Made by a program: the position numbers and the translations under genes. Source: a virus (taxonomy: Duplodnaviria; Heunggongvirae; Uroviricota; Caudoviricetes). Taken from it: DNA of 4,114 nucleotides. The stretch lies in IMG/VR virus record IMGVR_UViG_2695420650_000005. One strand, given 5' to 3'. Below are positions 969 to 2,231 of the stretch, piece by piece. Within the stretch, counting starts at the first letter, position 1. The number at the start of each line of letters is the position of its first letter. The notes beneath the pieces were generated by a model, which ran no database searches, had not been told where the DNA came from, and saw nothing but the letters and a program-made list of their open reading frames with translations.

Positions 969-1258
969 TGGTGGATTTACGTAAAGCGGCGCGGGGGCAG
1001 ATGTGCACCGTCAGAATTCCTGGCTACTGCAATCACGATCCGGAAACGTCTGTGCTGGCGCATTACCGACTGGCGGGAACGTGCGGAACAGCGATAAAGC
1101 CACACGATATGCAGGCAGCGATTGCCTGTAGCTCGTGCCACGATTTAATCGACGGGCGGGTAAAAACCAGCGATTACACCAAAGAAGAATTACGCCTGAT
1201 GCATGCAGAAGGTGTTTTTCGCACACAAGAAATCTGGAGAAAGGAGGGATATTTATGA
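968..1258 (+). CDS. Cys-rich small protein, likely DUF1364 family (96 aa), putative zinc-binding
   Basis: ATG at 968 overlaps the upstream stop; stop TGA at 1256-1258 overlaps the next start. Cys at residues 13, 21, 39, 54, 57 and several His suggest a metal-binding fold. Family name is from recall. Confidence 0.55.
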   Translation: MVDLRKAARGQMCTVRIPGYCNHDPETSVLAHYRLAGTCGTAIKPHDMQAAIACSSCHDLIDGRVKTSDYTKEELRLMHAEGVFRTQEIWRKEGYL

Positions 1259-1809
1259 TTTACCCAACGAATACAGGAAAAAGCGGAGAACACCTTCGTC
1301 TCACCACGCTGGAAAGTGTCTGGATTCAGGGAAAACTACGTATGTGGGGGCGCTGGTCGTATATTGGTGGCGGTAAGACGGGGAATATGTTTAACCTGAT
1401 GTTGACCTCTAAAAAGCTGACAAAAACGGCAATTAACGAGGCGCTCCGGAGGATGAAAAAAGCAGGTCTGAACAAGTCTGAACTTGAGGCTTTTTTGCGG
1501 GATATGATTAACGGTAAGCAAAAGAGCTGGCTGGCGCATTGTACTGATGCAGAGGCGTTATGTATTGATCGGGTCATAAGTGAGGTGCTGGCAGAGCATC
1601 CAGGATTGATTAGCGTCCTTCGGCAACGGTATGAGGGGCGGGGGATGACCAAACGCAAAATGGCTGAACTGCTGAATGATGCACACCCGAAATGGAGTTT
1701 AAGAACCTGTGAAAGACGCATTGAGCATTGGCTAAAGGTGGCAGAATTTATTTTGTACAAACCAATGGTTATGGCTTTTGGTATAGAGAAAAAAGTTATT
1801 GCTTTTTGA
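1255..1809 (+). CDS. Q: Phage late-gene antitermination protein Q (phage 82/21-type, 184 aa)
   Basis: ATG at 1255 with AAGGAGGG at 1241-1248 (7-nt spacer), preferred over the in-frame ATG at 1135 listed in the ORF track. N-terminal WGxW motif (RMWGRWSY) resembles Q-family proteins such as QuuD. Position fits: just upstream of an intrinsic terminator and phage tRNA genes. Stop TGA at 1807-1809. Confidence 0.65.
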   Translation: MIYPTNTGKSGEHLRLTTLESVWIQGKLRMWGRWSYIGGGKTGNMFNLMLTSKKLTKTAINEALRRMKKAGLNKSELEAFLRDMINGKQKSWLAHCTDAEALCIDRVISEVLAEHPGLISVLRQRYEGRGMTKRKMAELLNDAHPKWSLRTCERRIEHWLKVAEFILYKPMVMAFGIEKKVIAF

Positions 1810-1885
1810 CGTAAAAACTGCTTCAATTCTTGTACGCTTCGCAAAGCTGTACCGCGAGGCGAATAGCAGACATGGACATTTGAAA

Positions 1886-1910
1886 GAGCCCGCTTTATGC
1901 GGGTTTTTTT
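1886..1910 (+). terminator. Rho-independent terminator (tR'-like) downstream of Q
   Basis: Stem CCCGC (1889-1893) / GCGGG (1899-1903), loop TTTAT, followed by a 7-T run at 1904-1910; A-rich 5' flank can extend the stem. Oriented on the + strand. Confidence 0.65.
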
Positions 1911-1960
1911 ATACCTGAAAAACGGCACAGGACGTTAAACGTGCTGGTGGTCAGATGAGT

Positions 1961-1989
1961 TTGCAGATGTGATGACATATGGTTATTAT
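1961..1989 (+). promoter_or_regulatory. Candidate sigma70 promoter for the tRNA array
   Basis: TTGCAG (1961-1966), 17-bp spacer, TATTAT (1984-1989); predicted start about 1996, just before tRNA-Ile at 1999. Sequence match only. Confidence 0.3.
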
Positions 1990-1998
1990 TCTGCCTCC

Positions 1999-2075
1999 GG
2001 CCCTTTAGCTCAGTTGGTCAGAGCGAGCGACTCATAATCGCCAGGTCGCTGGTTCAAGTCCAGCAAGGGCCACCA
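1999..2075 (+). tRNA. ileZ: tRNA-Ile (anticodon CAT, predicted lysidine-modified, reads AUA); phage-type
   Basis: Cloverleaf folds: acceptor GGCCCTT/AAGGGCC, anticodon loop CTCATAA, T arm GCTGG-TTCAAGT-CCAGC, CCA at 2073-2075. Anticodon and T arms closely resemble E. coli ileX rather than elongator or initiator tRNA-Met. Symbol by analogy to Stx-phage ileZ. Confidence 0.75.
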
Positions 2076-2076
2076 A

Positions 2077-2153
2077 CCACCACTAGCTCATCCGGATAGA
2101 GCATCAACCTTCTAAGTTGACGGTGCGAGGTTCGAGTCCTCGGTGGTGGGCCA
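2077..2153 (+). tRNA. argN: tRNA-Arg (anticodon TCT, reads AGA); phage-type
   Basis: Acceptor CCACCAC/GTGGTGG (C1-G72), D stem GCTC/GAGC, anticodon loop CTTCTAA, T arm CGAGG-TTCGAGT-CCTCG, discriminator G, CCA at 2151-2153. Differs from my recalled host argU sequence. Symbol by analogy to Stx-phage argN and tentative. Confidence 0.8.
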
Positions 2154-2155
2154 GC

Positions 2156-2231
2156 GCCGACTTAGCTCAGCAGGCAGAGCAACTGACTTGTAATCAGTAG
2201 GTCACCAGTTCGATTCCGGTAGTCGGCACCA
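2156..2231 (+). tRNA. thrU: tRNA-Thr (anticodon TGT)
   Basis: Acceptor GCCGACT/AGTCGGC, anticodon loop CTTGTAA, CCA at 2229-2231. Matches my recollection of E. coli thrU and its position as the first gene of the thrU-tyrU-glyT-thrT-tufB operon. Confidence 0.9.

Follow-up and report, generated by a model that had tools for sequence, protein, structure and literature searches.

Features of the window

The DNA analyzed here is a 4,114-nt record from the IMG/VR virus catalogue (IMGVR_UViG_2695420650_000005; Caudoviricetes), referred to in its full length as the window. Along one strand, the window carries a phage arm, a tRNA-Thr gene whose 5' part is of phage type, tyrU and the spacer that follows it, a tRNA-Gly gene, a second phage arm, a gap, the 3' end of glyT, and finally thrT and tufB. 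Six tRNA genes (Ile-CAU, Arg-UCU, Thr-UGU, Tyr, Gly-UCC, and Thr-GGU) were called with ARAGORN and Rfam. The features are as follows.

1-72, plus strand: 3'-terminal end of an IS600-type insertion sequence (terminus ...CACCTCA), a repeat at the left edge of the record, matching the termini of annotated IS600 copies (loci L002 to L011) at 100%
369-968, plus strand: DUF1367 phage gene (Pfam E value, 2.9e-96)
968-1258, plus strand: YbcO/DUF1364 phage gene (Pfam E value, 7.7e-45)
1255-1809, plus strand: Q-type late antiterminator of the DUF1133 family, 184 aa (Pfam DUF1133 E value, 2e-107; Phage_antitermQ E value, 8e-7)
1881-1911, plus strand: intrinsic, tR'-like terminator 3' of Q, with a 13-bp stem and a U-run (-18.2 kcal/mol and z of -6.8 by folding)
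1999-2075, plus strand: phage tRNA-Ile2 (CAU), from ARAGORN and Rfam; PGAP labels the identical gene in complete genomes tRNA-Ile
2077-2153, plus strand: phage tRNA-Arg (UCU), from ARAGORN and Rfam
2156-2231, plus strand: tRNA-Thr (UGU), phage type at 2171 and 2175; 2176-2232 is the same in phage and host (first switch region)
2233-2438, plus strand: host-only segment of 206 bp, comprising tyrU (2240-2324) and the tyrU-glyT spacer, missing from all related prophages
2439-2515, plus strand: tRNA-Gly (UCC, 2441-2515) plus 2 nt, the same in phage and host (second switch region)
2516-2622, plus strand: 107 bp of phage DNA, leading in complete prophages to a class II holin gene; 100% identical to L001 and L003 to L011
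2623-2707, no strand: scaffold gap, a run of 85 N in the sequence
2708-2752, plus strand: second occurrence of the 45-nt glyT 3' end, at which the host piece begins; an exact repeat of 2471-2515
2753-4114, plus strand: host thrT (2759-2834, Thr-GGU) and tufB (2949 to the end of the window, truncated); 2708-4114 is 99.8% identical to K-12

All of the parts named in an earlier, sequence-only reading of this DNA (Q, the terminator, Ile-CAU, and Arg-UCU, then Thr-Tyr-Gly and, across the gap, Thr-tufB) are present, and its coordinates were right. That reading did not mention the return to phage DNA at 2516-2622, the gap at 2623-2707, the 45-nt glyT repeat, or the IS600 end at 1-72.

The phage late-gene module

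The phage module of the window is an ordinary member of the known lambdoid arrangement in which Q and tR' precede a tRNA cluster and the lysis genes. The DUF1367, YbcO/DUF1364, and Q genes overlap one another (369-1809), and the Q protein, at 29.4 bits, lies above the 26-bit cutoff for Phage_antitermQ. Shortly 3' of Q lies the terminator; a simple consensus terminator scan of the window did not pick up the 1881-1911 hairpin, which direct folding showed. A scan for a PR'-type promoter 3' of Q gave no convincing consensus promoter in 1809-1881, and the sole sigma-70-like match (9/12, a consensus match only) falls at 1960-1989, 5' of tRNA-Ile. In complete prophages that are 100% identical to the module, the tRNAs are followed on the same strand by holin, endolysin, and Rz genes, while the window itself reaches the gap 107 nt past Gly. 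By analogy with the known arrangement, Q would modify RNA polymerase such that transcription would pass the terminator at 1881-1911 and continue into the tRNAs and then the lysis cassette. The phage tRNAs would decode AUA, AGA/AGG, ACA/ACG, and GGA/GGG, codons of low usage in E. coli.

Stx-type and other lambdoid late clusters (Q-tR'-ileZ/argN/argO followed by stx or lysis genes) likewise have their tRNAs 3' of Q and a terminator; 933W-type phages carry ileZ-argN-argO. The Ile-CAU and Arg-UCU genes of the window are the same first two tRNAs, 88 to 90% identical to those in the Stx2 phage, Nil2, and 2851 records, and the holin, lysozyme, and Rz genes that follow the tRNAs in complete relatives of the module are a further likeness. 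Unlike the Stx-type cluster, however, the module has Thr(UGU) and Gly(UCC) as its third and fourth tRNAs rather than a second Arg, it has no toxin gene, and its Q belongs to the DUF1133 group. A literature search on phage tRNA clusters (Thr/Gly and ileZ/argN/argO) yielded nothing usable.

As for the left end of the window, its IS600/phage junction was not found in complete E. coli genomes; 100%-identical Shigella-type chromosomes have an IS1 copy ~40 nt upstream there instead. The same chromosomes carry another IS600 end 75 nt past the equivalent of window position 2622.

The phage tRNA cluster in complete prophages

To obtain the native context of the module, 5,426 complete E. coli genomes were searched. 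Lambdoid prophages found in this set have the gene order DUF1367, DUF1364, DUF1133 (Q), tRNA-Ile, tRNA-Arg, tRNA-Thr, tRNA-Gly, class II holin, lysozyme, and Rz, with the holin ~290 nt 3' of Gly. Thr begins 2 nt after Arg in these prophages, as it does in the window, and the same Arg-GC-Thr join is found in 48 of the 50 IMG/VR occurrences of the phage-type Thr-Gly junction. Nine complete E. coli genomes are 100% identical to the window across both 1960-2231 and 2439-2622. Looking up the exact Q protein led to large chromosomes of Shigella type with abundant IS1 and IS600 copies. Five of these (L003, L004, L005, L007, and L011) are 100% identical across 72-2232 and 2439-2622 and are without tyrU there; complete Shigella chromosomes were viewed around the Q gene only. 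The exact protein occurs in 3743 assembly-index blocks, 3,217 of which (86%) have it only on contigs shorter than 5 kb. The phage module can be present in multiple copies: CFSAN029787 has it at 8 places and CP061367 at 2.

In related prophages, Gly follows Thr after only 3 nt (TAT), a spacer that equals the base following thrU plus the two bases preceding glyT. The phage Thr gene agrees with host thrU at 74 of 76 positions (76 of 76 in a commoner variant), and the phage Gly gene agrees with glyT at 75 of 75. These alignments suggest that the phage Thr(UGU)/Gly(UCC) pair derives from host thrU-tyrU-glyT by deletion. The pair (window 2156-2231 and 2441-2515; L001 6934-7087; L014 to L143) is widespread and occurs with several upstream tRNAs and downstream arms. 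Matches of the native Thr-TAT-Gly junction in IMG/VR numbered 50 with phage-type Thr and at least 120 with host-type Thr; neither tyrU nor its spacer was found inside these ~170 IMG/VR phage Thr-Gly loci, and tyrU was likewise missing from such loci in the complete genomes searched.

Phage and host segments between Thr and tufB

The sequence-only reading had placed the phage/host boundary at 2153/2156, between Arg and Thr. The phage natively carries this Arg/Thr junction, so the position is not the phage/host join; the D-loop of the Thr gene, furthermore, has the prophage bases C2171 and C2175 where K-12 thrU has T/T. Complete prophages natively carry Ile-Arg-Thr-Gly with the same 2-nt Arg/Thr spacing. 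Alignments instead put the switch from phage to host anywhere in 2176-2232, a stretch of 57 nt that is identical in both loci, and reveal a second switch, from host back to phage, anywhere in 2439-2515, where 77 nt are identical in both loci. Since thrU and glyT are reproduced almost exactly in the phage Thr and Gly genes, the two loci share these exact repeats while standing a 206-bp indel apart; across the whole repeat, phage Thr-Gly and host thrU-tyrU-glyT differ by that indel and two bases. The true anomaly in the window is the 206 bp of host-only DNA that occupies the place of the TAT spacer between phage Thr and phage Gly, together with the subsequent return to phage DNA, the gap, and the glyT repeat.

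Other parts of the earlier reading hold to a degree. It rightly recognized that the record combines phage with core-operon DNA, and an assembly chimera was among its options, although the breakpoint was misplaced. The operon genes do lie on the same strand, but the colinearity it described is interrupted, with glyT followed by phage DNA and a gap and thrT not adjoining. Capture of host DNA by a phage, also among its options, is apt in an older sense, given the probable derivation of phage Thr-Gly from thrU-tyrU-glyT, but fails to explain the present record.

Compared with thrU-tyrU-glyT-thrT-tufB of K-12, the window is 99.4% identical across 2156-2515 and 99.8% across 2708-4114, with the same order and the same spacers. 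For 2156-2515, the matches listed from the 5,426 complete E. coli genomes went up to 99.7%, and none reached 100%. The window departs from the native operon in three respects. First, its upstream region is different: the coaA-side sequence and promoter are missing, and phage tRNA-Arg lies 5' of 2156. Second, its Thr gene has two phage-type bases, whereas host thrU has T/T. Third, glyT and thrT, normally 6 nt apart, are separated by 107 nt of phage DNA and 85 N, and only a 45-nt partial glyT precedes thrT.

Two details of the gap edges were also observed. CCTTC is common to the true phage continuation past 2622 (CCTTCGGGCG...) and the bases that open the post-gap piece (CCTTCCAAGC...), and that piece begins at the boundary between the anticodon stem and loop of glyT. 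The common motif and the start point could reflect chance or be the trace of a gap-filling step.

Searches for the hybrid joins

Within the 5,426 complete E. coli genomes, no place covered ≥80% of window 1960-2622, a search in which a single-crossover product of either kind would top the ranking. Neither phage Ile-Arg-Thr-Gly followed by thrT-tufB nor host upstream DNA followed by thrU-Gly-phage was found in these genomes. In all, the four possible phage/host recombinant joins were absent from the 5,426 genomes, in which both parental arrangements are common.

Wider collections were scanned for the junctions by exact pattern, the pattern having been confirmed to match the window, with the native Thr-TAT-Gly junction as a positive control. 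The two chimeric joins of the window and its hybrid Thr-tyrU junction had 0 matches in a set of one genome per prokaryotic species, in IMG/VR, and in JGI metagenomes.

A related join is present in one other draft contig, IMGVR_UViG_2698536408_000009 (5,537 nt; referred to here as L056). In L056, Ile-Arg-Thr-Gly of a different prophage runs directly into host thrT-tufB (4860-5537), and the contig stops inside the start of tufB. This join is probably a recurrence of the repeat-driven artefact in another draft, but it could be a true crossover in glyT and, as such, recurrent recombination.

Origin of the phage/host fusion

The fusion of phage and tufB-operon DNA is, in our judgment, probably a chimera that arose in the scaffolding of a short-read draft assembly around a collapsed repeat. 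A single Shigella-like or E. coli genome would have contributed both of the real loci mixed in the record, one of them a lambdoid prophage late region (Q, tR', tRNA-Ile2, Arg, Thr(UGU), Gly(UCC), and lysis genes) and the other the chromosomal thrU-tyrU-glyT-thrT-tufB operon. On this reconstruction, the assembler would collapse the Thr-Gly repeat, retain the longer (host) allele, and flank it with the phage arms, giving 1-2622. The host downstream piece, beginning inside glyT, would then be attached across the N gap by the scaffolder through true read pairs between tyrU and thrT-tufB.

Several observations argue for this explanation. Both switches fall within exact repeats (2176-2232 and 2439-2515), the two loci are intact in finished genomes, and the recombinant joins are absent there. 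Complete prophages, among them those of the five 100%-matching chromosomes without tyrU, natively have this Arg/Thr junction and these Thr bases. At the return from phage to host lies the 85-N gap, and the next piece opens with the 45-nt glyT duplicate; the gap and the duplicate together fit a host piece that starts inside glyT. In the genome, viral, and metagenome contig collections, the joins of the window number 0, against the 50 and at least 120 native junctions of IMG/VR. The record is bounded by repeats, with the IS600 end at the left and tufB, which has a near-identical twin in tufA, at the right. Fragmentation of the Q gene onto contigs of <5 kb in most index blocks and the multi-copy state of the phage module in such genomes point the same way. 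These traits are shared with known mis-joins from collapsed repeats and scaffolding, in which breakpoints lie in exact two-locus repeats, an N gap is followed by a duplicated repeat edge, the record ends in other repeats, and the joins are missing from finished genomes. In contrast to known cases, the size of the gap (85 N) and the CCTTC at its edges are left unaccounted for by this reading. Three points weigh against a chimera: De Bruijn assemblers break at repeats more often than they mis-join, read pairs would not be expected to link the phage arm to tyrU unless the join were real, and in L056, a second draft contig, thrT-tufB is again joined to the phage tRNA module, which could mean real recurrent recombination.

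A physical join made by recombination between prophage and chromosomal tRNA genes, whether by crossover or by gene conversion, is the less likely reading, the two routes taken together. The first route, which we hold to be improbable, is a RecA-dependent single crossover between prophage tRNA-Thr and thrU (57 nt) that joined Q-tR'-Ile-Arg to tyrU-glyT-thrT-tufB in an inversion or other rearrangement, in which case a gap-filling error from other prophage copies would account for the 107 nt of phage sequence that precede the gap. The switch stretch is long enough for homologous recombination, Shigella-type genomes are strongly rearranged, with IS1 and IS600 all round the locus, and the order of phage arm, tyrU, and thrT-tufB is what read pairs would give for a physical join; L056, from another assembly, supplies a comparable phage/host join through glyT. 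Yet this join and its reciprocal (host upstream-Thr-Gly-phage) were found in none of the 5,426 complete E. coli genomes and in none of the scanned collections, the identical Q gene has no EF-Tu gene downstream in ten distinct large-chromosome settings, and one artefact would still be required to account for 2516-2622.

Gene conversion, to which we give somewhat less credence again, would have let the prophage gain tyrU and the spacer through two crossovers, one in Thr and one in Gly. The stretch 1-2622 would then be true phage DNA (Ile-Arg-Thr-Tyr-Gly-holin), and only the link to thrT-tufB would be spurious. The contig is indeed unbroken over 1-2622, with phage DNA on either side of the host segment, and the derivation of phage Thr-Gly from thrU-tyrU-glyT implies that the loci exchanged sequence at least once. 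However, tyrU is absent from the ~170 phage Thr-Gly junctions of IMG/VR and from those of the complete genomes searched, a two-copy tyrU should itself have broken the assembly, and the scaffold link to thrT-tufB is simplest with the tyrU segment taken as part of the host operon.

Insertion of an integrative element into glyT, with 2441-2515 as attL, 2708-2752 as attR, and the element hidden in the gap, is highly improbable and was rejected. The 45-nt direct repeat (2471-2515 and 2708-2752), running from the anticodon stem/loop boundary to the 3' end, has the classic shape of a tRNA att duplication, but the adjoining DNA is not the integrase-proximal end of an element: it is mid-operon lambdoid sequence from upstream of the holin, always found after the phage's own full Gly gene, and the phage arm 5' of Thr would be left unexplained. 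Least probable of all is a specialized-transducing or otherwise host-DNA-capturing phage with tyrU-glyT-thrT-tufB, also rejected: phage and host genes do share one record and one strand, but the host segment is found mid-way through the late operon, not beside an attachment site and without att-adjacent geometry, phage sequence returns after glyT, a gap precedes thrT-tufB, and no phage record has the joins of the window.

Implications

The phage/host fusion is most likely not a real feature. For draft genomes and viral catalogues, the consequence of a collapsed-repeat chimera is practical: exact or near-exact copies of thrU and glyT in lambdoid prophages of E. coli and Shigella can yield false tufB fusions, and L056, filed in IMG/VR, is a probable example of such a catalogue entry. 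A real join would document recombination, by way of shared tRNA sequence, between a prophage and a core translation operon, and would directly show host operons feeding phage tRNA clusters. Either tyrU-glyT-thrT-tufB would have come to lie behind a phage Q gene and terminator in a rearranged chromosome, or tyrU would have moved into the phage; both would be live exchange, of which L056 would be a second, independent example.

Variant tRNA genes in related loci

Sequence variants of the tRNA genes were encountered in several related loci. At the two D-loop positions, the chromosomal thrU of strain EC-16-35 (L063 1501-1576) reads T...C rather than T...T and so matches the phage type at one of them. 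It was considered as a gene conversion tract and set aside, as a single base change proves nothing; the base can be explained by point mutation or by conversion over a very short tract. The alignments of L006 and L009 to the window stop at 2069, within tRNA-Ile, beside transposase-type genes.

The Gly gene of a sister prophage (L002 5866-5936, from FDAARGOS_943; also in CFSAN029787 and RMDEC/VL strains) has the anticodon loop TTACAGG in place of TTCCAAG. The L002 copy, annotated as tRNA-Val (71 nt), has also lost one base of the acceptor region; it may be a phage tRNA that is decaying or has been re-targeted. Finally, in three IMG/VR loci (among L014 to L062), the T-arm of the phage tRNA-Gly gene is interrupted by foreign sequence starting TGAAGTGGCACACTGAATTTGG..., possibly an insertion sequence.
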